A DNA stretch of 64,000 nt. Source: an uncultured Gammaproteobacteria bacterium (lineage in GTDB: Bacteria > Patescibacteriota > Microgenomatia > Levybacterales > UBA12049). Position 1 is the first letter of the stretch, and every line of letters begins with the position of its first letter. This document shows positions 1-45,563 of the stretch, piece after piece. The notes under the pieces were generated by a model. It was not told the origin of the DNA. It did no database searches and worked only from the letters and a program-made list of their open reading frames with translations. Location of the stretch: the NCBI GenBank assembly GCA_964553245.1, contig CAZKJM010000001.1:447555-511554 (forward strand), read 5' to 3'. The translations under genes and the position numbers were made by a program.

Positions 1-1952
1 TAGCAAGTTGAGTTAACAGTATTTGTTCCATCTACACAGTTTTCGAAACAATAATCAGCGCCATTGCTTTCTGTCCATATCCACCAACCCAAAATTCCAA
101 TATCTACGCCAAGTTTTTCGGAGGCAATAACAGCCTGAGGCATTACTTGTTTCCATCTTTTTAAAATTTCTTCATCAAATATTTTGGGGTTTGGATTATT
201 GGGTGCTGGAAATCCGTATGACTCGAATTTTTTTTGATCAAAACTAGCGCTTGTTGTTTGTCCAGATATTGAACTTGATTGGTTTGCGTTTGATTCCAGC
301 GTCCATTTTACTGTTTTAGTAAGAGATGTGTTTGTTGTTTGGTTTCCGTTTGCGTCAAAAAGAGTTGGGTTGTTGTCTGCGCTTACAAACTCCGCATTAT
401 CGGGGATAGGATCGGTTATAGTTATTTGACTGGGGTTTCCGGAATAAGAAACATTAATTGTAAAGGTTATATCTGAATCAGCAGAGCCAGCAATTGGATT
501 TGGGACACTTTCCTTATTTACTGTTTTAGAAATGTTTACAACAGGATTTCCTCCTATACCAAGCCTTGATTGATAATCCCCAGCACCGAATATAAGAAGA
601 ATTAAGACTAATATAATTATAAAAATTATTACAGCAAGAATAACCCACCCGACAGGATTGCTTCCTAGCGCTACAGCTCCTCCTGTTCCCGCGGCTGCTG
701 TTCCGGCTCCGGCAGCTCCAGCAGCGCTGCCAGCCGCGCCTCCGCCACCAAGAAGAGATCCAAAGATTGATCCTCCGGCTTGCCCTAAAAATCCTCTCCC
801 GGCACTTCCAAACAATTGTCCTCCTAATCTAGGACCAGATTTAAATATAGATTTGCCTTTGTTAAAAAGACTATTTGCTCTATCTATGTAATTTTTGGGT
901 TGTTTAATTGAGGGGAGTCTAAAATTACCAAGTGTTTCATGATCTTCATTATTTGTCGTAGTCGTAGTGGGTGTAAAGGTGGTTGGGGCAAAATACTCAT
1001 TTTGCCTTGCCGAAGAAGAATTGCCGGATGAAGATATGTGCTCACTTAATCTAATTGAAAAACATTGAATAAAAAAAGAAGTTACTTGCTCTCTTGTTTT
1101 TATTGATCCTTTATCCCATTGACGACTCATGGGCTTTTTTAATTTTAAAAATTTTCTCCTTTCTCTTGCGCTTTGGAGTTTTTTTGCCTGTTCAATTTTT
1201 TTTAAGGTTTCGGTTAGAGCAATTGAAACCACATCTCTCTTTGGATCTTGGGCTGGAGCATTTTTTATTGCTTCAATTGCCCTCGCTTTTTCTAAAAGAT
1301 CTGACTTTTCTTTTAAAAATGCTTCGTCTACAGCAAAACGGAAATCGTGATCTTCTTTAATTTGCGCTTCGGTTTTGCCGGCATGCTTTATGCACCATTC
1401 GTCAAACACTTTTTTTTCTGTTCTTCGATATTCCTCTTGCCTTTCTTTTGGGTCCCCAGAGGTCGTGTAGTCTTCTACAACAGTTCTTTTTACAACTTTT
1501 GTAAATAGATCAGGGGCAACAGTTTTTTTTAATCTGACGTTGTATAAAAGCTCTTTTTCTAATTTTTTTATTGATTCATTAAAAAGTTCATCTTTTGTTA
1601 ATTCTTTTTTTTGTTTGCCAAAATAAACGGCGTTTTCCTTTTTGTCTTTTTTTTGCGTCAGATCGCTTGTTTTTTTGTCTTCTGTATCGCTTACCTCCAC
1701 ATGATTTGGGTTTAGGAGAACATTTTCTATGTCCGATCGGAATTTTTCGTATTCAGGATAATCAACCAAGAGCTTAAAAAGGCTATCGTGCGCTCTTTTT
1801 AAACTGTCAGGGGTTCCGAGTGAAGCGTATTTCATTATTAAACTAAATCCATCCCTTGCGGCTTGACCCTTTTCATCTTGTGGCAATGTACTTATGAATT
1901 GCTCAATCCTTTTTTGAACAAATTCCTTTGTTTGACTGTCTTGGTTACTCAT
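1..1952 (-). CDS. Edge-truncated membrane protein. N-terminal ~330 aa are charged/cytoplasmic, followed by a Gly/Ala-rich segment, one TM helix (WVILAVIIFIIILVLILLIF) and an extracellular Ser/Thr/Asn-rich region. The last residues in the window (…VIASEKLGVDIGILGWWIWTESNGADYCFENC…) may begin a peptidoglycan-hydrolase (lytic transglycosylase/VirB1-like) domain.
   Basis: Manual reverse-strand translation gives an uninterrupted frame of 650 codons from ATG at 1952..1950 to the window edge. The ORF track omits it because no stop lies in the window. Its ATG overlaps the VirB4 TGA stop (ATGA), consistent with translational coupling. The small + strand ORFs at 658-1777 are antisense to it. Confidence 0.7.
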   Translation of the reverse strand, partial: MSNQDSQTKEFVQKRIEQFISTLPQDEKGQAARDGFSLIMKYASLGTPDSLKRAHDSLFKLLVDYPEYEKFRSDIENVLLNPNHVEVSDTEDKKTSDLTQKKDKKENAVYFGKQKKELTKDELFNESIKKLEKELLYNVRLKKTVAPDLFTKVVKRTVVEDYTTSGDPKERQEEYRRTEKKVFDEWCIKHAGKTEAQIKEDHDFRFAVDEAFLKEKSDLLEKARAIEAIKNAPAQDPKRDVVSIALTETLKKIEQAKKLQSARERRKFLKLKKPMSRQWDKGSIKTREQVTSFFIQCFSIRLSEHISSSGNSSSARQNEYFAPTTFTPTTTTTNNEDHETLGNFRLPSIKQPKNYIDRANSLFNKGKSIFKSGPRLGGQLFGSAGRGFLGQAGGSIFGSLLGGGGAAGSAAGAAGAGTAAAGTGGAVALGSNPVGWVILAVIIFIIILVLILLIFGAGDYQSRLGIGGNPVVNISKTVNKESVPNPIAGSADSDITFTINVSYSGNPSQITITDPIPDNAEFVSADNNPTLFDANGNQTTNTSLTKTVKWTLESNANQSSSISGQTTSASFDQKKFESYGFPAPNNPNPKIFDEEILKRWKQVMPQAVIASEKLGVDIGILGWWIWTESNGADYCFENCVDGTNTVNSTC

Positions 1953-3877
1953 AGATTAGTTGGCGTGGTTGGGTTTCCTGTCTGTATTGGTTGTTGATCA
2001 GGAGTTATTTCCGGATTTAATTGTTGGGGAGTTTTGGCAAGCGGTGCTTCATCCGTTGGTTTTTCGCTTGATTCCGTTTCTGCCTGTTTTTGCATTTTTT
2101 CAAGCTCTTGAGGATTAGATGTAATTAGCGTGTGCTCAAAAGGAGCAGCAATTACTTTTATAGCAACGTGACTTTGTCCTGCAAAAAATAATCCTTCACC
2201 GATGTCTGCGGAAAGCAACAACTCCTTTTCTCCTTGAGAAAGATAAAATATTTGAGCAATATGGTCAATTTCGGTAGTGCTTTGCTTTAAAAGCACTTGA
2301 ATTGATGAATTGGATAAAACAGCTTTCCCGTAGTCTGTTGATAAAAAGTCCTGAACATCCTGCGTTGCTGTGGTAAGCGCAAGATAATATTTTCTTGATC
2401 TTTTGGCTATTCCATAAACAAACGAAGCTGAATCCTGATATTTCATTATGTACCAAGCTTCATCTAAGATAAGCAATCTCTTTTTAAGATTCTTTTTAAC
2501 TTTTGTCCAAACAAAGTCCAAAATTATATGCATTGCAACCGGTCTTAATTCTTCCTCCAGGGTTTTAATATTAAATACGGTAAAAGGATTCTTTATGTCA
2601 AAGTTAGATTGTTGATTAAATATGCCATTTAAGCTTCCTTTAATGAATTTTTCAAGTCTTAAGGCAAGTTCTCTTGCGGCAGGATCTTCCATTCCCAAAA
2701 GTACTTTGTATAAGTCCTCCATAAGTGGAGGTTGTTTTTTTTGAGTTGAAGGATCTGCGGTAATTCCTTTTTGTCTGTATGTTTCTACCAGAGCTCTATC
2801 AAGTATCGCGTCGTGGGCAGGATCAAGATTGCCCATAATTATTCTTAGCAAGCCGTGAAGAGATAATATTTTTAAGCCGAGTTCGTTTTCCCCTTCTTCG
2901 TAAAGACCAGAAAGATCAAAAGGATTAATTTTTACCGGCTCAGACGGAGTAAAAGAAACATGCTCCCCTCCTAATGTTTTTGTCAGCGCTTCGTATTCTC
3001 CTTCCGGATCAATAATTATTACTTCTGTGCCAAACATAAATTGTCGCATCGCTTCAAGCTTAATAAGATATGATTTTCCGGAACCTGATTTACCAAAAAC
3101 TACTTCATTTGCATTTTCCAGTGTGTATCGATCAAAAATAACTAGTGAACCGTTTTGTTCGTTGATGCCATACATTACTCCGCGATCCTGCGTTAAAGTA
3201 GCAGAGGTAAACGGAAAGGTAGAAGCAAGAGAAGTTGTGTCCATGTTTCTGGTTATGAATAATCTGTCTTGACCAATTGGAATTGTTGACTTAAACCCGT
3301 CTTCCATCTGAAGGGTAGCGGTTTTAGTAATCATCATAATGGAATTAAGTATTGAGTTTAGTCTTTTTGATGCTTCGCTAAGATCATCAAGATTATCCGA
3401 AGATAAAGTTATATACAAACTGAACTGGAAAAATCTTTCAACTCCTTTTGCAAGTTGCTCTTGTATTTCCAGTGCGTCATCAAGTGCTGCTCTTACTTTT
3501 GGATCAACAACTTTTCCCTCCTCGATTTCGGAGGAAATAGTCGCTTCCATTTCGGCAATTTTTCTTCTTAAATCTGCCAGAACATCGGAGGCAGAGGTTG
3601 GGTAAATAAACATTGATACATTCATTGAATGGTCAAAGTCAATTAAAGGCTGTAGCCAGTTTGGAGAAACATAACGTGGGTATCCTACTACAAAAAACGT
3701 ACGATAGTATAAATCTCCAACGCGGATATATTTAAAATCTACTTCAACCGATGGGGGAGCAATTACATCAACTAAAGAAACCATTCCTTTTTCAAGCTTT
3801 TTAATACCGGGACCTTTTGTGTTTTGCTGAACAGGGATTATTGGTTGTTGTTTTGTTTTCTTGCCAAATATTTTCAT
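1949..3877 (-). CDS. virB4: Type IV secretion ATPase, VirB4/TrbE/TraC family
   Basis: Walker A (VVFGKSGSGKSYLIKL) and the family-typical Walker B (LLILDEAWYIMK) are present. Length is 642 aa. Pilin and VirB6-like genes lie upstream in the same orientation. Confidence 0.85.
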   Translation of the reverse strand: MKIFGKKTKQQPIIPVQQNTKGPGIKKLEKGMVSLVDVIAPPSVEVDFKYIRVGDLYYRTFFVVGYPRYVSPNWLQPLIDFDHSMNVSMFIYPTSASDVLADLRRKIAEMEATISSEIEEGKVVDPKVRAALDDALEIQEQLAKGVERFFQFSLYITLSSDNLDDLSEASKRLNSILNSIMMITKTATLQMEDGFKSTIPIGQDRLFITRNMDTTSLASTFPFTSATLTQDRGVMYGINEQNGSLVIFDRYTLENANEVVFGKSGSGKSYLIKLEAMRQFMFGTEVIIIDPEGEYEALTKTLGGEHVSFTPSEPVKINPFDLSGLYEEGENELGLKILSLHGLLRIIMGNLDPAHDAILDRALVETYRQKGITADPSTQKKQPPLMEDLYKVLLGMEDPAARELALRLEKFIKGSLNGIFNQQSNFDIKNPFTVFNIKTLEEELRPVAMHIILDFVWTKVKKNLKKRLLILDEAWYIMKYQDSASFVYGIAKRSRKYYLALTTATQDVQDFLSTDYGKAVLSNSSIQVLLKQSTTEIDHIAQIFYLSQGEKELLLSADIGEGLFFAGQSHVAIKVIAAPFEHTLITSNPQELEKMQKQAETESSEKPTDEAPLAKTPQQLNPEITPDQQPIQTGNPTTPTNL

Positions 3878-4542
3878 TTTTCTTCCTTTCTTACAATAGC
3901 TGTTTTTATATTTTCGGTTATCTGGTTTGTTTCGATATGGGCATCGTTATAAAGCTCGTAATAAAGTTTAACCAATTCCTCTTTTTCTAGCGTTTTTGCT
4001 CCAAGGCTAAGCCTTGCGAGTTGAGCGTGAATCGTATCAAGCTTTGTATGCAAAGATGCTTTTGCCTCTTCGATAAAAGAGTTTTTCCCCGACTGTTTTT
4101 TTACCGTTGCATTTGCAGCTACGGTTGCAGCTCCTTTTTCAAGATACGAATAGGGTATGCAGATATAAAAATTTTTGTCCAGCACGATATTTACTTTAAC
4201 CAATTCCTGCACAAAATCTCTATACAATTTAATTTGACTTGCTAGCATTTCGTTTTGGGTATTTTTGGCTTCGTTGTCTAATAGTTTTAAGTATGAGCTA
4301 ATATCTAGCTTTTTACTCCTAATAATAATTTCTATTGGAAAAGAAAGTGAGTTTAGAAGCGACGCGTAGGAATATATTTTTGTATTTTGCTCTTCAAGCG
4401 ATAAAAGCGCAAAATTTGTCGCTCTAACTTCAATAATAGAACAGGCACTATTTCCGGACAGAAGAACAATATCGTCAATAATATCAATAATTTCCGTAAA
4501 TTTTTGAGTTGTTGAGTGTATTTTTTGGGCAGAATCTTTCAT
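3874..4542 (-). CDS. Hypothetical soluble protein within the T4SS-like operon
   Basis: 222-aa ORF with a 4-nt overlap to virB4 and 3 nt from the upstream gene. No TM segment or recognisable motif. Confidence 0.5.
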   Translation of the reverse strand: MKDSAQKIHSTTQKFTEIIDIIDDIVLLSGNSACSIIEVRATNFALLSLEEQNTKIYSYASLLNSLSFPIEIIIRSKKLDISSYLKLLDNEAKNTQNEMLASQIKLYRDFVQELVKVNIVLDKNFYICIPYSYLEKGAATVAANATVKKQSGKNSFIEEAKASLHTKLDTIHAQLARLSLGAKTLEKEELVKLYYELYNDAHIETNQITENIKTAIVRKEEK

Positions 4543-4545
4543 ATA

Positions 4546-5811
4546 TTAATTACCGAATAAACTTTTTCTTAATTCTTCTCGCTCATCAATAGAAATTACT
4601 TCAATCGGCAAGATTATTTCTCCGGTTGCCTGAAATTCAACAGAATCGAATCTATGTTTTTTTTCCGGATCCTCAAAGTCAATGGTGTATATGCCGTTGG
4701 ACAAAGGAGTTGCTGATGCAAATTGCCCAAGCGGGTTAGTCTTAAAAGCCCGGACTGGGTTTCCTTCCTCGTCTTTTACCTCAACTAAAATATTCGGTAG
4801 AGGATTGTTTCTTGAGTCTTTTATAATACCTGTTAAAACATTTGGAAAATCAGTAGAAATAGGAAGTCCTACGCTTTTGCCCATTTCTTTTGGAATGCTT
4901 CTAACATGTTTAGTTTGTTTTATTTGCGGCTCAGGGATCGCCATGCTTGGGGTGTAAACTTTTTTATTTTGTACCTCAAGTTTTTTTTGAAGTTCCAATA
5001 ATTGATTTTCTAATTGTTGTTTTTGAAGCATAGTTTCATTTAAGATCTTTTCAAGTTCAGTTACTTTTTGGTGCGCTGCCTCATACTCTTTGGATCCTGT
5101 TTTCTCCGAAACTTCTTTTTGCTTTGCTTCCTCAAGTTGTTTTTGAAGAATTACAGCTTCTTTCTGAAGCTCTTCTTCTTTTTCTTCCGGTTCTTCTTTA
5201 GCTTCTTTGGTTGGCATATCAACCGGTTTTGGTGGTTCCACTACAGTTTTTAAATTGTTTTTGCCAAAAATTGCAGCAAATGGATTAGGAAGAGAAAAAG
5301 AGCTGTCATCTTGCAGGGTCTTGGCTTGAATTATTGGGTTAGAAATATTATTCAAGGTTTGCAAAAATGATATTTCTTTTTCGTCCAATTTATTTTTAGG
5401 AGTTTTTGGTAGCGAGGATAAAAATGACTTGAGCTTTTCTTCCGAAATTGCGGGTTGAACAGGAGAGTGAGCCATTATTGCGCCTTGTTTTAATGTCCCA
5501 AACTCGGGAAAATAAAGATCTGCTCCGTTTTTTTGATAAACAAATTGAGTTGGGTTAAAAAGTGCCTTTGAAAAATTGCCAATCATTACATCCAATGGTC
5601 TTCCCTCTATTGGCAAAAAAGCAAAGCTTGCTCCGATTCCGGCTACTACAAGCGCAATCGGAAGTTTTATCAAAAGCAAAAACGGCATAGCAGTAATAAT
5701 CCAACCTAAAATTACGCCTGTTGCAAGATATGCAAACTGTTTGACAGTCATATTGCCGATTAGTTTAAACTGAAAGCCTGTTATATCTTGAGGAATAGGG
5801 TGATTTTCCAT
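4546..5811 (-). CDS. T4SS-associated membrane protein. The N-terminal two-TM module (VirB3/PrgI-like?) is followed by a long coiled coil (EEKEEELQKEAVILQKQLEEAKQ…) and a C-terminal beta-sandwich-like domain.
   Basis: The N-terminus (TGFQFKLIGNMTVKQFAYLATGVILGWIITAMPF…) carries two predicted TM helices and is placed immediately upstream of virB4, as VirB3/PrgI is. Coiled-coil heptads are visible. The C-terminal region (PNILVEVKDEEGNPVRAFKTNPLGQFASATPLSNGIYTIDFE) resembles a carboxypeptidase-regulatory-like/Ig-like fold. Confidence 0.45.
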   Translation of the reverse strand: MENHPIPQDITGFQFKLIGNMTVKQFAYLATGVILGWIITAMPFLLLIKLPIALVVAGIGASFAFLPIEGRPLDVMIGNFSKALFNPTQFVYQKNGADLYFPEFGTLKQGAIMAHSPVQPAISEEKLKSFLSSLPKTPKNKLDEKEISFLQTLNNISNPIIQAKTLQDDSSFSLPNPFAAIFGKNNLKTVVEPPKPVDMPTKEAKEEPEEKEEELQKEAVILQKQLEEAKQKEVSEKTGSKEYEAAHQKVTELEKILNETMLQKQQLENQLLELQKKLEVQNKKVYTPSMAIPEPQIKQTKHVRSIPKEMGKSVGLPISTDFPNVLTGIIKDSRNNPLPNILVEVKDEEGNPVRAFKTNPLGQFASATPLSNGIYTIDFEDPEKKHRFDSVEFQATGEIILPIEVISIDEREELRKSLFGN

Positions 5812-5958
5812 ATAAAACTACTGTATAACGTGAAAAATTTGCTTTCAAGATTATCAAACTAGGTCAAACAACAATTAAAATGTATCTAAAAACCGTGAAA
5901 AATGCAATATAGAAAAACAATAATAATTTATGTAATTATTTCTTTTAGAAAAAGAGGA

Positions 5959-6342
5959 TTAGGAACAGTTATTAAACCCAAAATAATTAATACATTCGGC
6001 TCCTGTTATATAGGCGATAATTTTTATTATTAAAAAAGATAAAAAGATTACCAATAAGCCGATAATTGCATAGGTTAAAGTTTTTTTTGCTTGATCAATT
6101 TTCTTTTGATCTCCGCCTGATGTTATAAAGCTGATTCCGGATAAAATAACAAAAATTAAGGCAACACTTCCCGATAAAATCAAGAGCCAATTAACAACTT
6201 GACCAAATACAACCGGAAGGCATTGAAGAGTTGCAACTCCGTCTACCATACAGTTTGACCAAGAAGCTCCGCCTGAAGTTCCTCCTGTGGAGCCGGTTCC
6301 AGGATCAGCTTTGGCGATAAGGTTAATAAAAGTTGCCAACAT
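5959..6342 (-). CDS. VirB2/TrbC-like T4SS pilin, paralogue 1
   Basis: 127 aa with two hydrophobic helices separated by the short polar loop TSGGDQKKIDQAKKTLTYA, shared with the neighbouring paralogues. It has Cys pairs near the N-terminal (SNCMVDGVATLQC) and C-terminal (AECINYFGFNNC) ends. Confidence 0.6.
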   Translation of the reverse strand: MLATFINLIAKADPGTGSTGGTSGGASWSNCMVDGVATLQCLPVVFGQVVNWLLILSGSVALIFVILSGISFITSGGDQKKIDQAKKTLTYAIIGLLVIFLSFLIIKIIAYITGAECINYFGFNNCS

Positions 6343-6386
6343 AAAGATAGATTAACAAAAGAAATATTAATTTACAATACGCTTTG

Positions 6387-6779
6387 TTATAAAGTCGGGA
6401 GTTCTAGATTATTGATGCTTGGGAGACCAAATACACTTAGTATAATGCTTATTATTAAGTAAGAAAGAAATACTACGATTAATCCAATAATAGCAGCTAC
6501 TATATGACTTCTTGCTGCTTCTACTTTTCCTTTATCTCCACCGGATGTGACCCATCTGATACCACCATATATTAAGTATCCAAGAGCAGCAACAATTGCT
6601 AATATAAATGCGGTATTAATTATTACACCGATTATTTTTCCAAAATCTCCAGCTTTAAGCTCGCATAGAGTTTGAGATATTCCTCCACCTTCGCAAAGAT
6701 TAATGGTCTCTGCAAACGCAAATGGAGCCAGTGTTAAATAGGTTGCTGCTGAGGTAATAATTCCTACAGTTTTTTTCAT
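6387..6779 (-). CDS. VirB2/TrbC-like T4SS pilin, paralogue 2
   Basis: Signal-peptide-like N-terminus (MKKTVGIITSAATYLTLAPFAFA), then TM1, loop (TSGGDKGKVEAARSH) and TM2. This is the classic VirB2 topology. Confidence 0.65.
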   Translation of the reverse strand: MKKTVGIITSAATYLTLAPFAFAETINLCEGGGISQTLCELKAGDFGKIIGVIINTAFILAIVAALGYLIYGGIRWVTSGGDKGKVEAARSHIVAAIIGLIVVFLSYLIISIILSVFGLPSINNLELPTL

Positions 6780-6824
6780 TTATAATTTAATGCTAGTATT
6801 AAATTCCTGTCTTGTCAAGTACTT

Positions 6825-7139
6825 TTATATAAAATTATTAATTCCGAATAGTCCTCCGATAATATTTACAATTAAATACGCTAATAAAACAACTACCAAC
6901 CCGGCTACGGCATAAAATAATTTTTTTCTTGCTGCTTGCAATTTTTGTTTATCGCCCTCTGATGTCATCCACTGAAATCCTCCGTAGATTAAAAAGCCTA
7001 AAGCCAGAATAATAGCAACTATATATAATATATTTACTCCGACACCGATAATTTTTTCAAGAGTACCTGCTCCACCGGTTGGAATTCCTTGTGGTCCTGT
7101 AATCTCTTGTCCTGCAATATTTAAAACGATCTCCTTCAT
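6825..7139 (-). CDS. VirB2/TrbC-like T4SS pilin, paralogue 3
   Basis: 104 aa with TM1, loop MTSEGDKQKLQAARKKL and TM2, the same motif as paralogues 1 and 2. Only 3 nt separate it from the upstream gene. Confidence 0.6.
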   Translation of the reverse strand: MKEIVLNIAGQEITGPQGIPTGGAGTLEKIIGVGVNILYIVAIILALGFLIYGGFQWMTSEGDKQKLQAARKKLFYAVAGLVVVLLAYLIVNIIGGLFGINNFI

Positions 7140-7142
7140 AAA

Positions 7143-8336
7143 TCAGCTGAATCCGGGTATTTTTAAAATATCAACACCAATTACCTGAAGTATAACAAGG
7201 GAAAAGATTATAAACAATAATCCAACAATAGCTGCTGTTAAAGACTCTTTTGCTCCCTGCATTTTTTCCGGGTTTCCTCTTGCCAAAATAATTTTGTAAC
7301 CAGATAGAATGATTAAGATTAATGCAATTCCCCCGGAAAGACTTAAAAGGACACCGAATAAAGATTTAATAAAAGACGCTGCATCTGTTCCTAATGTTAT
7401 TCCAAGCCCAGTATCTATGGATAAACATTTTCCGCCATCTCCCAACTCTGAACAATGCGCAGTAATCGGAGGAAGATTATCAAAAAGGTTATCAATAAAT
7501 ACTTTCCCCTCATTGCTTTCTTCTCCTAAAACATTTAGAACGATCCAGTCTTTATTATTGCCTTCAAAAACATATATAGTTTGATCTCCAATTGCCTTAT
7601 CTGGAACCTTAAGTTCTATTTTACATTCAGGCTCATCTAGACATTGCCTTAAATTGTCCGATCCGCCCTGGAACCTGTATTTATAAGTCCCGCTTTTGTT
7701 GTTATGGATTGTCAATGTAACTGTCTCTCCAGGATTTGCTTTTGAAGGATCGATTGACAACGTGAATGGAGCATTATGTTCTTGATCTAAATAAAAAGTT
7801 CTATAGGTCTCGACATGTTCTTTTTGTTTATTGGTTGCATAAAGTCTATAGACAGCGCCTCCTGTTCCAAAAATATCAAATTTTTCCACTTTAAATTGCG
7901 CTTTAATTTTCCAATTTTTCCCCCCATCATTACTAAAACAAGATTGTTGAACAAATGATGATCCTTGATGAGATAGGTCGCATGTTGAAGACTTTCTGTT
8001 AATTTTATACTCCAATTTCCATTCATGTTTTGAAGATTTAAAAACATTACTGGTTGATTCATTCTCTACCAAAATTAAGAGTTGATATTCTTCATCTGGT
8101 TTTGGCGCTGGTAATTGTCCCCCTCTTGAGTAATAAAGTGTTGTTTGAGTTTGAGCAGTGCTTACTTCTCCCCAAATAGCATCAGAAATATCTAGTTCAA
8201 CGTTTATAATGTCACCGTTTTTTACATTAGTTTTATCAATCGTTAGCGCAACTCCGCTTGCATGAACAGGGTTTTTAAAAAACAGGAAAAAAATTAAGAT
8301 TAAGATTGAAAATAGAATTCTTTTCAGGACAGGCAT
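7143..8336 (-). CDS. Pilin-fusion protein. After a signal peptide, a ~300-aa extracellular domain is fused to a C-terminal VirB2-like pilin module.
   Basis: The N-terminal signal is MPVLKRILFSILILIFFLFFKNPVHA. The Cys-containing extracellular region is beta-rich. The C-terminal 70 aa (…ILSGYKIILARGNPEKMQGAKESLTAAIVGLLFIIFSLVILQ…) repeat the TM-loop-TM motif of the three small pilins. Confidence 0.55.
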   Translation of the reverse strand: MPVLKRILFSILILIFFLFFKNPVHASGVALTIDKTNVKNGDIINVELDISDAIWGEVSTAQTQTTLYYSRGGQLPAPKPDEEYQLLILVENESTSNVFKSSKHEWKLEYKINRKSSTCDLSHQGSSFVQQSCFSNDGGKNWKIKAQFKVEKFDIFGTGGAVYRLYATNKQKEHVETYRTFYLDQEHNAPFTLSIDPSKANPGETVTLTIHNNKSGTYKYRFQGGSDNLRQCLDEPECKIELKVPDKAIGDQTIYVFEGNNKDWIVLNVLGEESNEGKVFIDNLFDNLPPITAHCSELGDGGKCLSIDTGLGITLGTDAASFIKSLFGVLLSLSGGIALILIILSGYKIILARGNPEKMQGAKESLTAAIVGLLFIIFSLVILQVIGVDILKIPGFS

Positions 8337-8374
8337 AATTAAATCGTAATTTAAAAAGTCTGTAAAAGCAAGTT

Positions 8375-9793
8375 TTAAGAAGTAAATTTAAGTCCCCGGC
8401 CTTTTACTGTTTGAAGATGCTTTGGATTATTTGGGTCATCTTCGATTTTTTTTCTGACCCGAAAAATAAGTTGATCCAAAGCCTGATCAGTTACTCCCGC
8501 TGTTGTTTGAGTATCCTTCCAAACAGCAGAAATTATTTCGTTTCTTTCTAAAATTTTTTCATGACTATCGATTAAAAATTTTAATAATCTAAATTCAAGA
8601 GTAGTGAGAGCATCGGATAAAACAATCTCACCTTTTTTAACTTGGTTTGTATTTTGATCGTAAATTATTTTATCCGAGGCGATTTTTATAAGCGCATTAT
8701 TTTTATCAAGAAACATTTCGAGTAGAGGAATTGAAATTTTCCCATTTTTTATTAAACCTATTTTTTCAAGTAGGTTAAGCTGTTCAAGATTAATCTTTTT
8801 AGCCATAGACTTTTGCTCAAACGGCGTTAAAAAACTCCAGATCTCAAAAAGACAGGCTTTAATTTGTTTTCTTTCTATTAAAAAATCAGCAATATTTTCT
8901 TTTGGAAAATCAGAGCTTGTTACAATTTCTGTAGCAAGTCTCGTAAGCTTACTGTGTCCTCCGGTAAGGCTAATTAATTTTTCAATTAATTCTTTTTTAA
9001 TTTTTTTACCCGAGACCTTTTCCAAATACGAAATTCTAAAATCCAGCCCGATTTTGTCTTTAATATTTAAATAGACAATTTTATCAGCAATAAATTCGTA
9101 AAACTGGTTTAATATTTCGGTAATTAAGGTTTCTTCAAGCGGTCTTGTCAGTGAAAATATTGAGGCAAAACGGTATTTAGCTTTATTTCTTAAAATTCTA
9201 AGATTTGCAAAAAACTCGCTTGAAATAACCGGGATGTACTCATCGAAACGATCAAATAAAAAAATAATCGACAATTTTTTTTCGATAGACAAGCAATCAA
9301 AAGCTTCTTTTAAACCCTGAAAAAGAACAAGTTCGTCGTTTAAGCTAAGATGTTCCTTAAAAATACGGTGAATTTCCCTATGTTCATTGATTAACTCTCT
9401 GTCTCTTAATGAATCGGCAAGAGACAAAAAAATATATTTATTTACGTCAAAAAGCGATCGGTTTTTAACCTCGGAAAAATTCATATAAACAAAATGAACA
9501 TTTTTTTGATTTTCTCCCAAATGCTTAACGCGGATTTTGTGATTATAGGCAAGCATCCTTAACAGATTTGATTTACCTGATCCAGGAAGACCAATTAATT
9601 GGCAGGAATTTCCCTCTTTTAGAAAATCTAAAATTTTCTGTATTTCTTCAAAACGGGAATCCTCAGGATAAAGGGATTCAAAATGAGTAAAACCATTATT
9701 GTTTGATTGTTTCATTGCAACACTATGGTAATTGTAAGTTTTTTGTAAGGAAAATATCAAGTTTAATAAGTTCTTAAGGATTAAAATCGCCAT
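8375..9793 (-). CDS. Transcriptional regulator with an N-terminal P-loop NTPase (AAA/STAND-like) fused to a C-terminal OmpR/PhoB-type winged helix
   Basis: Walker A is LIGLPGSGKSNLLRML. The C-terminus matches the trans_reg_C pattern (LTTLEFRLLKFLIDSHEKILERNEIISAVW…ALDQLIFRVRKKI…LQTVKGRGLKF). The annotated start at 9793 lies 4 bp from the divergent ORF start at 9797, so the internal Met at 9715 is a possible alternative start. Confidence 0.65.
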   Translation of the reverse strand: MAILILKNLLNLIFSLQKTYNYHSVAMKQSNNNGFTHFESLYPEDSRFEEIQKILDFLKEGNSCQLIGLPGSGKSNLLRMLAYNHKIRVKHLGENQKNVHFVYMNFSEVKNRSLFDVNKYIFLSLADSLRDRELINEHREIHRIFKEHLSLNDELVLFQGLKEAFDCLSIEKKLSIIFLFDRFDEYIPVISSEFFANLRILRNKAKYRFASIFSLTRPLEETLITEILNQFYEFIADKIVYLNIKDKIGLDFRISYLEKVSGKKIKKELIEKLISLTGGHSKLTRLATEIVTSSDFPKENIADFLIERKQIKACLFEIWSFLTPFEQKSMAKKINLEQLNLLEKIGLIKNGKISIPLLEMFLDKNNALIKIASDKIIYDQNTNQVKKGEIVLSDALTTLEFRLLKFLIDSHEKILERNEIISAVWKDTQTTAGVTDQALDQLIFRVRKKIEDDPNNPKHLQTVKGRGLKFTS

Positions 9794-9796
9794 AAT

Positions 9797-12499
9797 ATGA
9801 CAAAAGAATTTGAATTCCAGAAATTGACAAGCGAAGTTAATTTTTCTACACTCAAAGGTAGAAAGGTTATTTTTATGGAGAACTCAGAAACACCAAGGCC
9901 ACCTGAAGATAAGGGAATGGGTAAGAATGTGTTAGGCGGAGAAAATCCTGCTTCTTCAGAAGCTTCTGGAGTTAACGAAACAAGTGAACAAAGAGGAGAA
10001 GAGCTTCAAAGAAATCTTGCAAGGCTTGGTATAGGAAGCGAAGAGTTTGGAGATATTTCAGAAGAAGAGAGGTTGATGGCTCAAAGAGCACAACAAGAGT
10101 TTATAAGACAAGCAAGGGAGGGTCTTAGAGACAACATTTCCCCGCAGGAAAAACTAAAAAAAGAAGAAGAAAAAATCCTTAGCTTAGGATCAAGAGAAGA
10201 TCTTGATAAATTTTTAGTTTCAAAAGACAAGAATCTTTTGTTTTATCTTCTAGACGCAAAAAGATTAATAGAGAAAGGCGATTTTGCAATAGAAGACGAA
10301 AGAGCAAAGGAAAACTTTTTAAACGAATTAAATGAACTCATTGCGATGTCAAAAGGGGACAAATCAATAGTGGACGTCGATGATTATAAAAGAAGGGTTT
10401 CTGAAATTATTCATGGCAAAACTGATGCGGCTGGTAAAGAAAGCCTCGGCTTAATAGATTTATGTAAAAAACGCGAGCCCAGAGAAATGCACGGCGAAAT
10501 GCCTAAATGCCTTGAAGATCTTGCCGAATTAATCATGAGCTCGGAGGAAGATAAGTGGAGAAAAGACGGAGAAAGAGCGCTTATTAACGAAGAGGGAAGT
10601 GTAAATACGGAAAATTTATTAGCTTGGTTCAGGGACAGAATTATGTGGTTTCATGATTTTAATCCTGATTCGGAGATAAATTTGTTTAATCAAATCTCCG
10701 TGCCAACGCTGTACAGAACCTACTCATTTTCGGAAATGCTTGATAACAAAAGATATTTCTTAAAAAGAACAAAAAGGTTAGGAGAAGGAGAGTACGAACA
10801 TCATAGAAGCGAAGAATATGAAAAATTAAAAGACCATTTGCTTTACGAAGTTTGGTTGTTTAACACCTCGCATAATTATGACGTAAAATACCGCACTGTT
10901 ATGGGAATTGAATCTAAGGTTCCGGAGGTTTTAACAGAAATGTATTACACTAACGTTTTTACTAAGGATAGGAATAGACTTCTCAAGATTTTAAAGCTTC
11001 CTAAAATTGATCAGATAGAAGTAGGAAAGATTGTTAAGTCTAAAAATGGCGAGCAAGAAGGACAGGGAACAGTTGGAAGAGTCGTCAGAAGAGCTCTTCT
11101 TGCCTATTATTATCTTCCGGAGTTGGTTGCAGAAGATGATCAATTAGTAAATGGTGGGAATATGTTTGAAAAGTCACTCGGAGAAAATGGCTCGCTTGAA
11201 TTTTACGCTTCCCTTGTAAAACAGCTTGGTGGAGAAGTCCTAGACACAGGATCAATGGGTTTTAGAGACGCCAGAAATATTTTAAGAGAAAGAATAGCTG
11301 ATTTACTAGATAAAAAATATGGTCATAAATTTACCCAGCTAAATATTTTTGATGACGTAAATAAAGATAGAACGGTACTGCGTCTTATAAGAACTGCCTT
11401 AAGGGATGCGATTGCAAAGGTGGAAGGATTAGCAGATAAAAAAGGAAATCCGGACGAAAACGTTATCTATGGAGAGAACTGGGCAAATACAATGATTTAC
11501 TGGACAGGAATTTCTGCAAAAAACGATACTAATGCAATTGGTTTTGACGCGTGGACAAAAATAATGAGCGCAAAAGATTATAGAGTAAGACAAGCAGGAG
11601 CAAGAGGAATTTTTGGAGAAATGTACAATATTTATGGTTTAACAAGAATCGGATTAAATTTTTGGGAAGGAATTAAAGTAAGAAGAGAAGGAGACAGGGG
11701 TTTTAACTGCAATGTTTTGGAGGTTTTACAGGGTGGTCAAGGAAACGATATTAATCTTGATCGCGGAATAAGCGATTTTGATTTTCAGGATAATGCTCAA
11801 AGACAATTTGCGGCAAATCATATAAGAAATGCTTTTAGTTTTTTTGAATTTGTAATGAAAAAACACGGAATGAATTTTGACCAATTTTTATCTGTTGACG
11901 TATTCGGGAGAATAATTTTTGATCCAGGGAAAGCAGACGAAGTGTTTGATAAATTATGGAGCAAAGGACTTCGTTATACTTTTGATTTGCCGGATTTTTT
12001 TTGGGATCATGAGGTACGTGGTTGGTGGAGAGATAAAGATAAGGATGGTGAGGAGTGCGTATATTTTGGCTCAAAAAAACTAAGGGATTTAATGTTTAAC
12101 GAAGAACTAAATAATATGGGAATGTACGACAGAGAAAGATTTAAAGATCAAAAGAGTAAATTAGCAGCTCGCAATGTTTTTGCATACCTTATTGCTAAAG
12201 AATTATATGCGCATAGAGCATTTGATTCCAGATATAAAAGATACAGCGCAGAACAAATAATGGTAATAGAATCATATTTAAGAGGATACCCATTAGAAAT
12301 TGAAGAAACAGAAGGACACGAGGTTAAAATAAAAGATTACTTTTTCTCAAAAGAGGAATGGGAGCATGTTACAAAAATTTCTCATACACAATATAGTAAG
12401 ATGTTTATGGAAAATCTTGCGTTAACTGGAACCCAAGGAGCAATAGGCGGAGCCTTTTCAGGCATAAAACATTTTATTAAGGAACTAGTAAAATTCTAA
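9797..12499 (+). CDS. Hypothetical 900-aa soluble protein with no recognisable domain, embedded in the T4SS-like locus
   Basis: Long uninterrupted ORF with good coding character, no TM segments, an acidic/charged N-terminal ~250 aa and a Trp/Phe/Tyr-rich core. It is divergent from the regulator gene and convergent with the VirB6-like gene, overlapping it by 4 nt. The start may be a downstream Met (M26 or M41). Confidence 0.6.
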   Translation: MTKEFEFQKLTSEVNFSTLKGRKVIFMENSETPRPPEDKGMGKNVLGGENPASSEASGVNETSEQRGEELQRNLARLGIGSEEFGDISEEERLMAQRAQQEFIRQAREGLRDNISPQEKLKKEEEKILSLGSREDLDKFLVSKDKNLLFYLLDAKRLIEKGDFAIEDERAKENFLNELNELIAMSKGDKSIVDVDDYKRRVSEIIHGKTDAAGKESLGLIDLCKKREPREMHGEMPKCLEDLAELIMSSEEDKWRKDGERALINEEGSVNTENLLAWFRDRIMWFHDFNPDSEINLFNQISVPTLYRTYSFSEMLDNKRYFLKRTKRLGEGEYEHHRSEEYEKLKDHLLYEVWLFNTSHNYDVKYRTVMGIESKVPEVLTEMYYTNVFTKDRNRLLKILKLPKIDQIEVGKIVKSKNGEQEGQGTVGRVVRRALLAYYYLPELVAEDDQLVNGGNMFEKSLGENGSLEFYASLVKQLGGEVLDTGSMGFRDARNILRERIADLLDKKYGHKFTQLNIFDDVNKDRTVLRLIRTALRDAIAKVEGLADKKGNPDENVIYGENWANTMIYWTGISAKNDTNAIGFDAWTKIMSAKDYRVRQAGARGIFGEMYNIYGLTRIGLNFWEGIKVRREGDRGFNCNVLEVLQGGQGNDINLDRGISDFDFQDNAQRQFAANHIRNAFSFFEFVMKKHGMNFDQFLSVDVFGRIIFDPGKADEVFDKLWSKGLRYTFDLPDFFWDHEVRGWWRDKDKDGEECVYFGSKKLRDLMFNEELNNMGMYDRERFKDQKSKLAARNVFAYLIAKELYAHRAFDSRYKRYSAEQIMVIESYLRGYPLEIEETEGHEVKIKDYFFSKEEWEHVTKISHTQYSKMFMENLALTGTQGAIGGAFSGIKHFIKELVKF

Positions 12500-14196
12500 G
12501 ATTGTTTCCCCCAAGCCTTTTCTCCCCCAAGCCATTGTTTAGTGCCATCGGCCAATCGTTGTGCGATCTTAGAATTTTTATGGTTATCGGCATATTTTTG
12601 CGTAAGTCTAATAGGTAAGCTCCTAATAGGACCCGCTCCTCTAGTATAATCAGCAGGTCTTGTCAGTTGTTTCCAGCCGTAACCAGTTGGTTTTCCCAGC
12701 GTTGATGTTCCAACATGGAAGGCTTGACCGATTGGAGCCATCTCAAACTTTGGAGCCTTAAGCATTTTCTCTACCATAGTTGCAACATTCGGAGTTAATA
12801 AAATTATCCCCAGTCCTACAACTGCAGCTAATTGATCTGCATTTCCAACGTTACCTACCAACGGTGGGGTAAAAAAAGTATTTGCGCCGGTTGATTGAAT
12901 TGCATCTATAAAAACTTTTCCGAGCAAAAGCATGGCTACTACAGTAGGAAAAACAATTAACTTAGAGCCTATGCTTCTTAACCAGGAACCAAAACCGCGT
13001 TCGCTTCCCATAAACGGAATTATTCCTATAACAATAAATAAAGGGGACAGTACTATGTCTATGAGTATCCCAACATAAGTGAGCAAAAGCTTAAACCATA
13101 ACCTAAACATAGCAAAAGTTATAGCAACGGCAATAATTAAGAATGCAATTAGTTGACCAAGTCCTGCTAAAACCTTTTCTGCAAATCCAGCAGCAGTTAC
13201 AGCCCCTGCAATTCCACCGATAATACTACCGATAATTGGTATAGCAGATCCAGCAGCTACTCCTGCAGCAACAGACCCAGCCATCATAAGCATACCAAGT
13301 ATTCCTTGAAGTATTTTACCTGGACCAGTTTCGAGCATTGATTGTATAAATGTTCCTATGGCACCCGCAGCTTGCCATGACATACTAACGAAGTTTACAT
13401 TTTTATCGAAATAAATTGGAGCTTGATAATTTACTTGGTTTGCTATTTCAAGTTTAATTTGGGGATCAGCATTTGCAAACAAGTTTATTATTAAATATGT
13501 CGCAACCCACATTAAGTCTATTAGGAATCCGGCAATTGCAAACGAAAAAGTTACTAAAATGATTCCGATAATCATTTTAGGAATTTGATTTTGAATAGTC
13601 ATTACGGTACGCGGATCAATTTTTACACGTAACATTATTGCAAGTCCAACAAGAATAAAAACAAGCACAAAAACTATATAAATCATATTTCTAAAAGCAG
13701 CCCACGCGTTCATTAGTGGATTTAATTGTTGAAAACCGGTTGTTTGTGCAAGCGCTGGTTTTGCAATCCCAAAATTCTGAGCTAGATAATTTACATATTC
13801 AAAACTATGCGCAGGAATATTAAAAGTCATTGTAATCAAATTGTTTAAAACACCGATTACTCCTCCTCCGCCAATTTGTCCGGGTTCTGCAGCGGGTACG
13901 AATCCGATTTTTCCGGTTTTTGGATCTACGCCCAAGCATTGATGATTTTGACTGATTGGGTCATATCCGGTTAACTGACAAGCAACAGTTGCCATTAATT
14001 CTATAAACACATTTTGAGTATAGGTGTGCAGGTTTTGGGGAACATCGGGATTATTTACGGGAGCGGTGTAGCTATTCTGAGCAAAGGAAGATTTACTTAA
14101 GTTAAATAAGAAAATCAGTACAAGAAAAAAAACGGTTATTAACCGGGCAGCGAATCTCATTAATATTAGTTTGAAGTATTTTAATTGGTGTGTCAA
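12496..14196 (-). CDS. Polytopic membrane protein, VirB6/TrbL-like T4SS inner-membrane component
   Basis: A signal-like N-terminus (MRFAARLITVFFLVLIFLFNLSKSSFA, alternative start 14160) precedes a ~130-aa extracytoplasmic region. This is followed by at least six hydrophobic helices with Gly/Ala-rich stretches, as in TrbL/VirB6. Genomic context is the VirB4/pilin locus. Confidence 0.5.
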   Translation of the reverse strand: MTHQLKYFKLILMRFAARLITVFFLVLIFLFNLSKSSFAQNSYTAPVNNPDVPQNLHTYTQNVFIELMATVACQLTGYDPISQNHQCLGVDPKTGKIGFVPAAEPGQIGGGGVIGVLNNLITMTFNIPAHSFEYVNYLAQNFGIAKPALAQTTGFQQLNPLMNAWAAFRNMIYIVFVLVFILVGLAIMLRVKIDPRTVMTIQNQIPKMIIGIILVTFSFAIAGFLIDLMWVATYLIINLFANADPQIKLEIANQVNYQAPIYFDKNVNFVSMSWQAAGAIGTFIQSMLETGPGKILQGILGMLMMAGSVAAGVAAGSAIPIIGSIIGGIAGAVTAAGFAEKVLAGLGQLIAFLIIAVAITFAMFRLWFKLLLTYVGILIDIVLSPLFIVIGIIPFMGSERGFGSWLRSIGSKLIVFPTVVAMLLLGKVFIDAIQSTGANTFFTPPLVGNVGNADQLAAVVGLGIILLTPNVATMVEKMLKAPKFEMAPIGQAFHVGTSTLGKPTGYGWKQLTRPADYTRGAGPIRSLPIRLTQKYADNHKNSKIAQRLADGTKQWLGGEKAWGKQS

Positions 14197-14228: not shown

Positions 14229-14315
14229 GGAGGGATCGCATAGAGGCCTAGTGCGTTCGCTTGGAGAGCGGATGTCGTCGTGAGATGACCGGGAGTTCGA
14301 ATCTCCCTCCCTCCG
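14229..14315 (+). tRNA. tRNA-Ser(GGA), type II with long variable arm
   Basis: Acceptor GGAGGGA/TCCCTCC, 3-bp D-stem, anticodon stem TTCGC/GCGGA with loop TTGGAGA, an 18-nt variable arm and T-arm GGGAG-TTCGAAT-CTCCC. The track ORF at 14102-14374 is an artefact over it. Confidence 0.8.
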
Positions 14316-14390
14316 CCTTCACCCGCCGAAGCCAGAATGGCGAAGGCGGGCTTCGATCGGGTTTCAGCGGACACAGTCCGCCATAATGAG

Positions 14391-14819
14391 TTATGAGTTA
14401 TGAGTTATGAGTTGTTTTGCTTCCTCCCAAACCTTTTTATCTGATTTGTAAGTTAATTTTTTTTCCACTTTTTCCACAGAAAGCCATTCAACGCTTTCCA
14501 TTTCTTTATCTTTTAAGCTTAAATCCTCAGTTAAATATTCCATTAAAAAATAATAAACGGTTTTCTTGATTTTTTGTTTTTCAAAAACATACCAATACTC
14601 AACCGGATTTAATGATTTTAGAATTTTGGCGTTAATACCTGTTTCTTCCAAAACTTCTCTTATTGCTGTGTCTTCTTTTTTTTCTTTTTCAATCTTATCT
14701 CCGATTAATCCCTTTGGAAAAACCCAGCCGTGATGTTGTGAATGCTGGCACACTAGAATTAAAAGTTTATTTTTTTCTTTTTTAAAGACTATGCCACCGG
14801 CAGAAAATTCAAATTTCAT
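14391..14819 (-). CDS. NUDIX hydrolase
   Basis: Nudix box GX5EX7REVLEETGI present (…KGLIGDKIEKEKKEDTAIREVLEETGINAKI). Overlaps the upstream GIY-YIG gene by 4 nt (ATGA). Confidence 0.7.
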   Translation of the reverse strand: MKFEFSAGGIVFKKEKNKLLILVCQHSQHHGWVFPKGLIGDKIEKEKKEDTAIREVLEETGINAKILKSLNPVEYWYVFEKQKIKKTVYYFLMEYLTEDLSLKDKEMESVEWLSVEKVEKKLTYKSDKKVWEEAKQLITHNS

Positions 14820-15058
14820 AATGGAAATAAATGTTTTTTTAAGAAAGCCCTTCCAGAACCAGATTTAAGGTATTTCTCAAAATTAAAAGCGGTATATTTA
14901 TCTATGAACGCAAAATAAGAGATCAGTCTTATTGGACGTAGTAATTTAGTTGCAGGTACATGTCCTTTTTTATGCCTTTCTATTCTTTCTTCCAAATTGC
15001 TTGTACAACCCGTATATGGTTTGCCGTTTTTACATTTTAAAAAATATACAAAAAACAT
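14816..15058 (-). CDS. Small stand-alone GIY-YIG domain protein (~80 aa)
   Basis: The GIY-YIG-like motif is MFFVYFLKCKNGKPYTGCTSNLEERIERHKKG. The track ORF (14816-15259) is over-extended across two tRNA genes. The real start is probably the Met at 15058, with AAGGAG 9 nt upstream. Confidence 0.6.
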   Translation of the reverse strand: MFFVYFLKCKNGKPYTGCTSNLEERIERHKKGHVPATKLLRPIRLISYFAFIDKYTAFNFEKYLKSGSGRAFLKKHLFPL

Positions 15059-15122
15059 ACTAATTTCTCCTTCGCGAACTACTAAGCGGATGTTATCCGC
15101 CGTAGCTCGCTTCGGCGAGCGA

Positions 15123-15212
15123 TGGCGGAGGAGAGAGGATTCGAACCTCTGTGAGCCGTAAAGCCCGCTCGGTTTTCGAGACCGGCCAAATAAACCACTC
15201 TTGCACTCCTCC
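15123..15212 (-). tRNA. tRNA-Ser(CGA), type II
   Basis: Reverse complement gives acceptor GGAGGAG/CTCCTCC, 3-bp D-stem CAA/TTG, anticodon loop CTCGAAA (one C·A mismatch at the stem top), a long variable arm, T-arm AGAGG-TTCGAAT-CCTCT and an encoded CCA. Confidence 0.65.
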
Positions 15213-15217
15213 ATAAG

Positions 15218-15290
15218 CGCTCTTGGGGAGAATCGAACTCCCAGCCTAAGCGTCCGCAACGCTTCGCTCTATCCGTTGAGCTACAAGAGC
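15218..15290 (-). tRNA. tRNA-Arg(GCG)
   Basis: Reverse complement GCTCTTG-TA-GCTC-AACGGATA-GAGC-G-AAGCG-TTGCGGA-CGCTT-AGGCT-GGGAG-TTCGATT-CTCCC-CAAGAGC-G. Every stem pairs perfectly and the anticodon is GCG. Confidence 0.75.
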
Positions 15291-15297
15291 CCGTTAC

Positions 15298-15346
15298 CGC
15301 TTCGCTCTATCCGTTGACCCCGATTAAATCGGGGTTGAACTACAGG
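15298..15346 (-). repeat. Truncated 5' copy of tRNA-Arg (5' acceptor strand, D-arm and 5' anticodon stem) interrupted by a 17-nt hairpin, upstream of the intact tRNA-Arg
   Basis: The 19-nt stretch gcttcgctctatccgttga occurs at 15261-15279 and again at 15299-15317. The second copy is followed by ccccgattaaatcgggg flanked by a ttga duplication, then actacagg, which is the D-stem region. It ends exactly at the anticodon stem/loop boundary. Confidence 0.55.
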
Positions 15347-15361
15347 CACAGATTAGCAAGT

Positions 15362-15375
15362 AGTATATAGCAAAT
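15362..15375 (-). promoter_or_regulatory. Putative extended -10 promoter (TGCTATATACT on the - strand) for the tRNA-Arg / tRNA-Ser(CGA) transcript
   Basis: The 14-mer agtatatagcaaat also occurs at 16266-16279, upstream of the other minus-strand tRNA pair. It resembles the TGCTATACT element upstream of three other genes. Confidence 0.4.
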
Positions 15376-15424
15376 AATAAATAGCTACACTGTGATTTTA
15401 CTTTAAAGTTGAATTTGAAGCAAA

Positions 15425-15997: not shown

Positions 15998-16062
15998 AGA
16001 GCAGTATATTTTTAATCTACCCTAATCAGAAGTATTAGTCAATAAATATTGATTTTCAATTT

Positions 16063-16152: not shown

Positions 16153-16157
16153 TAGGG

Positions 16158-45560: not shown

Positions 45561-45563
45561 CAA

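Follow-up and report, generated by a model that had tools for sequence, protein, structure and literature searches.

The hydrolases PrgK (pCF10), TraG (pIP501) and CwlT (ICEBs1) of the type IV secretion systems (T4SS) of Gram-positive bacteria are cell-associated multidomain proteins with extracellular catalytic domains, are encoded in the transfer operon near a VirB4-type ATPase, and pair an SLT or muramidase domain with a CHAP or NlpC/P60 domain (PrgK also with LytM); they are needed to pass the thick wall. In Agrobacterium-type (MPF-T) systems the local lysis of peptidoglycan for assembly of the T4SS and its pilus is presumed to be the task of VirB1, a small soluble periplasmic SLT protein with a lysozyme-like (GH23) fold. 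Here we describe a gene whose product may serve this purpose in a 64,000-nucleotide stretch of DNA (positions 447,555 to 511,554 of contig CAZKJM010000001.1, assembly GCA_964553245.1; hereafter the window). An earlier note, made from the sequence alone, had drawn attention to an unannotated minus-strand frame at the window edge, adjoining virB4, and had proposed that it encodes the VirB1-like cell-wall hydrolase of the system. Multidomain wall hydrolases associated with T4SS are already known; what sets the present one apart is, among other features, the fusion of a lysozyme-like domain that is invisible to sequence models with an LAS peptidase.

In a 2025 survey of Patescibacteria, canonical VirB1 homologues were poorly associated with virB4 in most classes, VirB8 homologues were reported to be rare, and the wall-lysis step was left open (Quiñonero-Coronel et al. 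2025, PMC12102498). The same survey notes that the part of VirB1 may be taken by homologues of peptidases and lysozymes encoded downstream of virB4, and refers in one sentence to the Southlakia protein SEML1_0007 as a possible VirB1 substitute. Candidatus Southlakia epibionticum ML1 (Saccharimonadia) requires its T4SS to grow as an epibiont (Wang et al. 2023, PMC10633639), and SEML1_0007, a 'hypothetical protein' of 1113 amino acids (aa) encoded directly downstream of VirB4 in the cluster SEML1_0006-0019, is scored as essential for that growth by transposon sequencing (PMC10633639, supplementary tables). SEML1_0007 is the nearest published counterpart of the protein described here, the comparison being made from the published description of gene position and C-terminal domain class. 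It too is large, lies right after VirB4 and has a C-terminal Hedgehog/DD-peptidase domain, which is an LAS fold; in both organisms a cysteine-proteinase gene (in Southlakia SEML1_0006) and then a gene for a PEGA or weakly PEGA-like protein (in Southlakia SEML1_0005) follow, and the cluster lies within a few kb of dnaN. The two loci differ in that the lysozyme-like domains of Southlakia share the following gene, SEML1_0006, with the cysteine proteinase, whereas here the LAS peptidase has the lysozyme-like domain fused ahead of it and is followed by a gene for a C39-like peptidase alone. A conserved, predicted cytoplasmic domain some 300 aa long and a second module that is clearly swapped among close relatives further set the present protein apart from SEML1_0007.

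With PrgK, TraG and CwlT the protein shares its place in a T4SS operon beside a VirB4-type ATPase, its predicted attachment to the cell with the catalytic domains outside, and its combination of putative glycan- and peptide-cleaving domains. It differs from them in that the peptidase is a MepA-like LAS enzyme, with no CHAP or NlpC/P60 domain detected in the protein, in that the glycosidase domain is not recognized by SLT models, and in that some 430 predicted cytoplasmic residues precede the transmembrane (TM) helix, in place of a short N-terminal anchor. From VirB1 it differs as a 1025-aa, predicted bitopic protein with an added peptidase and no match to SLT hidden Markov models (HMMs). The reading that we favor, and to which we assign a probability of roughly three in four on the basis of sequence and structural models, is that this protein is a T4SS-dedicated, membrane-anchored, bifunctional peptidoglycan hydrolase that opens the wall for the machine.

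A 1025-codon gene overlapping virB4

Translation of the minus strand from position 1952 to position 1 of the window gave 650 codons without a stop, just as the earlier note had read it, and the other five frames of window 1-1952 contained between 20 and 51 stops. Given the base composition of the region, a run of 650 codons free of stops would arise by chance with a probability of about 1.5e-21, which rules out a chance open reading frame (ORF) or an antisense artefact. The program-made ORF list skips frames that leave the window and lists in this region only plus-strand ORFs of 60-88 aa, which were rightly taken for antisense artefacts in the note.

The gene is indeed cut by the window edge. 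It was completed on L001, a 15.8-kb contig of the Logan assembly of SRR8476420 that was found by exact look-up of the VirB4 protein; L001 is 100% identical to window 1..9717, with which it may share reads. The remaining 375 codons, beyond window position 1, lie at L001:9716-10843, and the frame runs to a stop at codon 1026, giving a protein of 1025 aa. A frameshifted pseudogene was ruled out, because the frame is continuous on the identical contig and the homologues are full-length. Records of the exact 1025-aa protein exist in NCBI, JGI, ENA and Logan, the longest contig that bears it having 561,761 bp.

At its start, the ATG (1952-1950) shares the sequence ATGA with the TGA (1951-1949) of the upstream virB4 ORF, and the same 4-nt overlap with virB4 is found in the relatives L002, L004, L055, L059, L064, L065 and L068. 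This layout fits a coupling of hydrolase translation to that of virB4, as had been proposed, the coupling itself being judged from the arrangement of the two frames.

A divergent lysozyme-like domain with an invariant glutamate

In the motif IWTESNGADYC (aa 625-635), close to the window edge, a resemblance to the start of a lytic-transglycosylase-type domain had been noted. A domain spanning aa 573 to about 800, and beginning just ahead of IWTES, was modeled by AlphaFold with a mean predicted local distance difference test score (pLDDT) of 83.6 and of about 95 over its first 230 residues. The model shows a lysozyme-like alpha-helical fold with a beta-hairpin lobe, in which E628-S629 closes helix 46-56 of the domain model, just before the beta-hairpin. 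Five residues, E628 (encoded at window 69-71), C639, C650, Q663 and D748, are invariant in a 41-sequence alignment of the domain. The modeled position of E628 appears to match that of the general-acid glutamate of lysozymes and GH23 enzymes, making E628 the probable general acid; Q663 lies in the sequence WQVG, and a glutamine motif (GLMQ-like) after the catalytic glutamate is a mark of GH23. The conserved pair C639/C650 points to a disulfide, in keeping with a position outside the cytoplasm.

Sequence models gave a different answer. The SLT, SLT_2 and SLT_3 models had no hit in the full-length protein even at E≤10, nor in the 41 homologous domains, and searches of the full-length protein and of the window fragment against Pfam and NCBIfam returned no SLT, CHAP, NlpC/P60, LytM or Glucosaminidase domain. 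Searches of PDB sequences by phmmer with the full protein and with a profile of this middle domain yielded chance hits only, one to a flagellar protein through low-complexity sequence and one to mL42, and no lysozyme or transglycosylase. What stands of the earlier proposal is thus a lysozyme-like fold with an invariant glutamate and a VirB1-like role; what does not stand is membership of the SLT, CHAP or NlpC/P60 families, for which HMM searches had been suggested. The evidence supports a protein that is VirB1-like in role and fold and that by its sequence falls outside the VirB1/SLT family. On the strength of the model, the middle domain is probably a very divergent GH23-like glycan-cleaving domain, and both lytic transglycosylase and muramidase activities would be compatible with it.

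The lysozyme-like domain is preceded by a DUF11-type immunoglobulin (Ig)-like domain, which recurs in family members and scores 18.8-22 bits against the Pfam cut-off of 24.6. In-silico deletion of the lysozyme-like domain brought the DUF11 score to 28.4 bits, as against 22.0 bits with the domain in place, and a longer part of the profile was covered; the segment at aa ~812-840 (FTITLRPK…TYIINQA) is conserved in the family. These results suggest, as a lead and not as a result, that the lysozyme-like domain may be inserted within the Ig domain. The Ig parts would then be aa 456-572 (window 237-587) and aa 812-852, with FTITLRPK…TYIINQA perhaps supplying the last strands.

A compact MepA-like peptidase at the C-terminus

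The extended gene encodes a second putative wall hydrolase at its C-terminus. Pfam Peptidase_M74 matched the whole protein with 31.9 bits and the C-terminal fragment with 34.8 bits (cut-off 25), and a 23-sequence profile matched E. coli MepA (1tzp) with E=5.9e-9, pairing HasHkkGidvD with HASHQTGLDVD and HenHfHvr with HRAHMHVR. The motif H939-x6-D946 together with H1012-F-H1014 is invariant in the 23 sequences and in 96 homologues, among which H936, H939, G942, D946, H1009, H1012 and H1014 are all invariant or nearly so. The H-x6-D and H-x-H residues are presumably the zinc-binding and catalytic residues, an assignment made by analogy with LAS enzymes.

Among known enzymes, E. coli MepA, a murein DD-endopeptidase that is insensitive to penicillin (Peptidase M74; PDB 1tzp, 1u10), is alike over the C-terminal 150 residues and in both motifs. 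The peptidase described here is more compact, with about 150 aa, where MepA aligns with roughly 175 residues out of a chain of 255, and it is not a MepA orthologue, since the NCBIfam MepA equivalog NF006947 scored 28 bits against a cut-off of 272. This compact M74 version serves as a module in many Patescibacteria proteins. A C-terminal domain with no hydrolase homology had been named as the finding that would undo the hydrolase idea; because the protein ends in a MepA-like LAS zinc peptidase, the idea survives.

Exchange of hydrolase modules behind virB4

An exhaustive search with the ectodomain gave 287 cluster representatives, among which the lysozyme-like and C-terminal domains occur as independent modules. 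Full-length members follow a common plan, in which 270-720 residues at the N-terminus and then one or two TM segments lead to the Ig domain, the middle domain and a variable tail, the latter being Amidase_3, M15_4, Amidase_2 (one with SLT), SLT_3 or none that was recognized. The recognized tails all belong to wall-hydrolase families; M74 occurs only in the protein from the window. All eight middle-domain proteins whose loci were examined sit in virB4 clusters, seven of them directly after virB4 (P0001, P0002, P0023/L004, P0005, P0009, P0013, P0116) and the eighth (P0006) three genes further on, behind an M23 protein. At four of the eight loci dnaN and dnaA lie nearby.

A survey of 36 genes located directly after virB4 in related genomes found Pfam M23 in seven and CHAP in four, and Amidase_3, M15_4, Glucosaminidase, YkuD, SLT and SLT_3 in one each. 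Judged from these sequences, the slot after virB4 appears to be a place for wall hydrolases with shuffled contents. The synteny bears on the possibility that the protein is a general growth or division autolysin that adjoins T4SS genes by chance. Many bacteria use endopeptidases of the MepA type and lytic transglycosylases for housekeeping, and the locus is chromosomal and beside dnaA and dnaN, as such an enzyme might be. Nevertheless, the overlap and the place after virB4 are conserved in the members checked (seven of eight directly after it) across VirB4 identities of about 60% to 85%, and the middle domain was not seen outside virB4 clusters in the eight cases examined; given this conserved synteny, we consider an autolysin highly improbable.

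The C-terminal module is exchanged even among genomes whose VirB4 proteins are 84-85% identical, being M74 in the window, Amidase_2 in L002 and M15_4 in L004. In a BLASTP comparison of L001 with L002, no more than 278 hydrolase residues can be aligned (38% identity), while VirB4 is 84% identical; the hydrolase is the most divergent protein of the cluster that still aligns, its aligning neighbors being 54-84% identical. Evolutionary rates within the cluster are very uneven. In the same comparison, the pilins are 54-71% and DnaA and DnaN 66-74% identical, and no similarity was detectable between the PEGA-like proteins.

Such divergence raises the question of whose wall is cut. The enzyme could be aimed, instead of or besides at its own wall, at that of a host bacterium in the contact zone between epibiont and host, where it would breach the host peptidoglycan so that the T4SS or its pilus reaches the host membrane, with the C-terminal module matched to the wall chemistry of the host. 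The protein's standing as the fastest-evolving one of the cluster between the two relatives, the swapping of the module at such high VirB4 identity and the requirement of the T4SS for epibiotic growth in Southlakia (PMC10633639) all speak for a host target. However, the TM helix would anchor the protein in the membrane of the producer, with no evident cleavage or secretion signal, fast evolution is usual for surface-exposed proteins generally, and no host is known for the source organism. Moreover, the machine must cross the producer's own peptidoglycan: the window encodes two class A penicillin-binding proteins, a MurD-type Mur ligase, an Asp/Glu racemase and a SpoIID-domain protein, from which we conclude that the organism makes its own peptidoglycan. 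A host target thus seems unlikely to us, although it is compatible with a hydrolase dedicated to opening the wall for the T4SS, and neither excludes the other.

Membrane topology and the N-terminal domain

The topology predicted for the T4SS-dedicated hydrolase rests on a hydropathy scan, in which aa 436-458 form the sole strongly hydrophobic segment of the protein. Adjoining the membrane on its N-terminal side is the Gly/Ala-rich stretch GGGGAAGSAAGAAGAGTAAAGTGGA (aa 402-426, window 675-749), so that the earlier description of such a stretch just before a single TM helix holds; the homologue P0002 has a comparable Gly/Ala/Thr-rich stretch ahead of its TM helix. Since it lacks a signal peptide and has a single TM helix and a conserved cysteine pair in the enzyme domain, the protein is predicted to be a bitopic membrane protein of N-in/C-out topology.

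The N-terminal domain, which would be cytoplasmic, is kept in about nine distinct homologues, in which Y175, W186 and D240 are invariant. Its AlphaFold model is of moderate confidence (pLDDT 69.8; predicted template modeling score, pTM, 0.47). The overlap of the gene with virB4 and the conservation of this domain lead us to conjecture that it docks onto the ATPase complex.

The same features could point to a mainly structural scaffold that links the VirB4 complex to the wall, in place of VirB8- or VirB6-like subunits, with the hydrolase domains being secondary. A long conserved cytoplasmic domain, the overlap with virB4 and an Ig-like spacer typical of envelope-spanning structural proteins would suit such a scaffold, as would the difficulty of finding VirB8- and VirB6-like subunits in Patescibacteria, where VirB8 homologues are rare (PMC12102498). 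Yet the putative catalytic residues are strictly conserved in both enzyme domains, the N-terminal domain has no fold match to any T4SS subunit, and a single TM helix is unlike the polytopic VirB6. We regard a scaffold as quite unlikely.

The T4SS gene cluster and its surroundings

The hydrolase is the last large gene of a cluster in the order regulator, four pilins, PrgI, TraC-like protein, VirB4 and hydrolase (Table 1). The genes are spaced by −4 to 147 nt, which fits a single operon from the T4SS genes through the hydrolase, and the STAND-type protein at the head of the cluster would be regulatory, judging from its domains and position. VirB4 appears to be split, in that the TraC-like ORF of 222 aa corresponds to the N-terminal region of the Mycoplasma-type VirB4 model (NF045975); it overlaps the 642-aa ATPase ORF by 4 nt, and all the related loci listed share this split. 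The first pilin gene (7143-8336) encodes 397 aa with the pilin domain confined to aa 322-386, and its N-terminal extension is variable, since the counterpart in L002 has 176 aa. Beyond the hydrolase and outside the window, L001 encodes a Peptidase_C39_2 protein of 220 aa (L001:10860-11522) and a PEGA-like protein of 196 aa (a weak match; L001:11519-12109), followed by dnaN and dnaA, both on the opposite strand, and then by rnpA and yidD; dnaN and dnaA lie 1.3-3.9 kb past the end of the hydrolase gene. The relative L002 is without the C39 gene.

Table 1 Features of the hydrolase gene and the T4SS cluster (window coordinates; aa numbering of the 1025-residue protein).
Feature	Coordinates	Strand	Basis
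T4SS-coupled putative hydrolase gene, first 650 of 1025 codons	1..1952	-	translation and identical contig
Lysozyme-like domain, first 78 residues (aa 573-650)	3..236	-	alignment and AlphaFold model
DUF11-type Ig-like domain (aa 464-572), predicted extracellular	237..563	-	Pfam DUF11, below cut-off
Single TM helix (core aa 436-458)	579..653	-	hydropathy scan
Low-complexity linker (aa 311-433)	654..1022	-	sequence; modeled part (aa 311-345) of low confidence
N-terminal domain (aa 1-310), Lys/Glu-rich, all-alpha	1023..1952	-	AlphaFold model and homologue alignment
ATGA overlap, hydrolase start and virB4 stop	1949..1952	-	layout typical of translational coupling
VirB4-type ATPase, 642 aa	1949..3877	-	NCBIfam conju_CD1110, 399.6 bits (cut-off 325); Pfam P-loop_TraG, DUF87
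TraC-like protein, 222 aa	3874..4542	-	matches N-terminal part of longer VirB4-family ATPase
PrgI (VirB3-like) fused to CarboxypepD_reg-type domain, 421 aa	4546..5811	-	domain scan
Four tandem VirB2-like T4SS_pilin genes	5959..8336	-	domain scan
STAND-type NTPase with Trans_reg_C DNA-binding domain, cluster head	8375..9793	-	domain scan
MepA-like LAS zinc peptidase (aa 875-1025)	outside window	-	Pfam M74

Neither a relaxase nor VirD4 turned up in a scan of 40 window ORFs, which are part of the ORFs of the window. A mobile conjugative element was ruled out on two grounds, the dnaA/dnaN synteny in four related loci and the lack of a relaxase or coupling protein among the ORFs scanned. The cluster is the chromosomal, origin-proximal, relaxase-less Patescibacteria T4SS of Quiñonero-Coronel et al. 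2025 (PMC12102498), having an MPF-FATA-like VirB4, PrgI, VirB2-like pilins in an array, a location near dnaA and no relaxase or coupling protein among the ORFs scanned. Proteins related to VirB4, with 58-86% identity, belong for the most part to metagenome-assembled genomes (MAGs) titled Candidatus Levybacteria/Levyibacteriota, Microgenomates or 'Patescibacteria group', and this similarity would place the genome in Candidatus Levybacteria, in the Microgenomates group of the ultra-small Patescibacteria. Many MAG records with such VirB4 clusters (L004-L083) bear the title 'uncultured Gammaproteobacteria', 'uncultured Pseudomonadales' or 'Nevskiaceae bacterium', which we suspect to be taxonomic mislabels because of the gene content.

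The regulator is flanked by a strongly G-skewed 900-aa ORF (9797-12499, plus strand) and a 566-aa ORF (12496-14196, minus strand), both without a Pfam match; a 936-aa ORF is found at the equivalent place in L002/L003, and the two ORFs could be unrecognized T4SS or surface components. Further along the window, 14229-16246 holds a cluster of four tRNA-Ser genes and one tRNA-Arg gene. Within it, the listed ORF 14816-15259, which has a GIY-YIG domain at aa 68-135, encloses the tRNA-Ser(CGA) gene (15123-15212) and therefore probably starts further downstream. A tRNA-Ile gene with the anticodon UAU, which is uncommon in bacteria, lies at 45489-45561 on the plus strand and adjoins a tyrosine recombinase gene (Phage_integrase; 45564-46424, minus strand); a 789-aa ORF at 43058-45427 has no Pfam hit.

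Discussion

If the protein is a hydrolase dedicated to the T4SS, its action might be pictured as follows. Translated together with virB4, it would expose an all-alpha domain and a Gly/Ala-rich linker, some 430 residues in all, to the cytoplasm, cross the membrane by one TM helix, and carry outside an ectodomain consisting of an Ig-like spacer, the GH23-like domain with Glu628 as general acid and the LAS zinc peptidase, in that order. The membrane anchor, possibly together with a cytoplasmic domain docked on the ATPase complex, would hold the enzyme at the machine, where it would cut glycan strands and peptide cross-links locally, and the channel and VirB2-like pilus could then cross the wall. 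It would fill the place that VirB1 has in Gram-negative systems and that PrgK, TraG and CwlT have in Gram-positive ones.

Several observations weigh against this proposal. The lysozyme-like domain has no Pfam, NCBIfam or PDB-sequence match. A Foldseek search of its model against PDB gave a best E of 0.83, which is not significant, although the top-ranked structures were MltE and g-type lysozyme; since the same families rank first without reaching significance, any kinship to lysozyme and MltE is distant. In the only alignment that hhalign found with a goose lysozyme sequence, E628 falls on the catalytic E73, at a non-significant E of 0.13, which makes this pairing no more than a lead. The middle domain was found beside virB4 only in the closest relatives among 80 genome loci, and at least 19 of the 36 genes directly after virB4 encode no recognizable hydrolase domain. 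A fold search with the N-terminal domain gave no informative match, and none to any T4SS subunit, so that docking to VirB4 stays a conjecture.

In this Levybacteria lineage, the slot after virB4 holds a fused, putative two-enzyme hydrolase whose glycosidase domain escapes all curated sequence models, which may help to explain why HMM surveys miss a 'VirB1' there. The analysis names residues for mutation (E628, H939, D946, H1012 and H1014), and the conserved cytoplasmic domain is a candidate handle for the recruitment of such enzymes to the machine. Module swapping among close relatives makes a role in host specificity a testable question. A more far-reaching and doubtful proposal, which we put forward tentatively, is that the protein is the tool with which the T4SS breaches the wall of the host, held by the cytoplasmic domain and tuned to the host by its exchangeable module (M74, M15, amidase or SLT), and that its glycosidase founds an undescribed, T4SS-specific lysozyme-like family. 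If this were true, the protein would be a host-range determinant in Patescibacteria.

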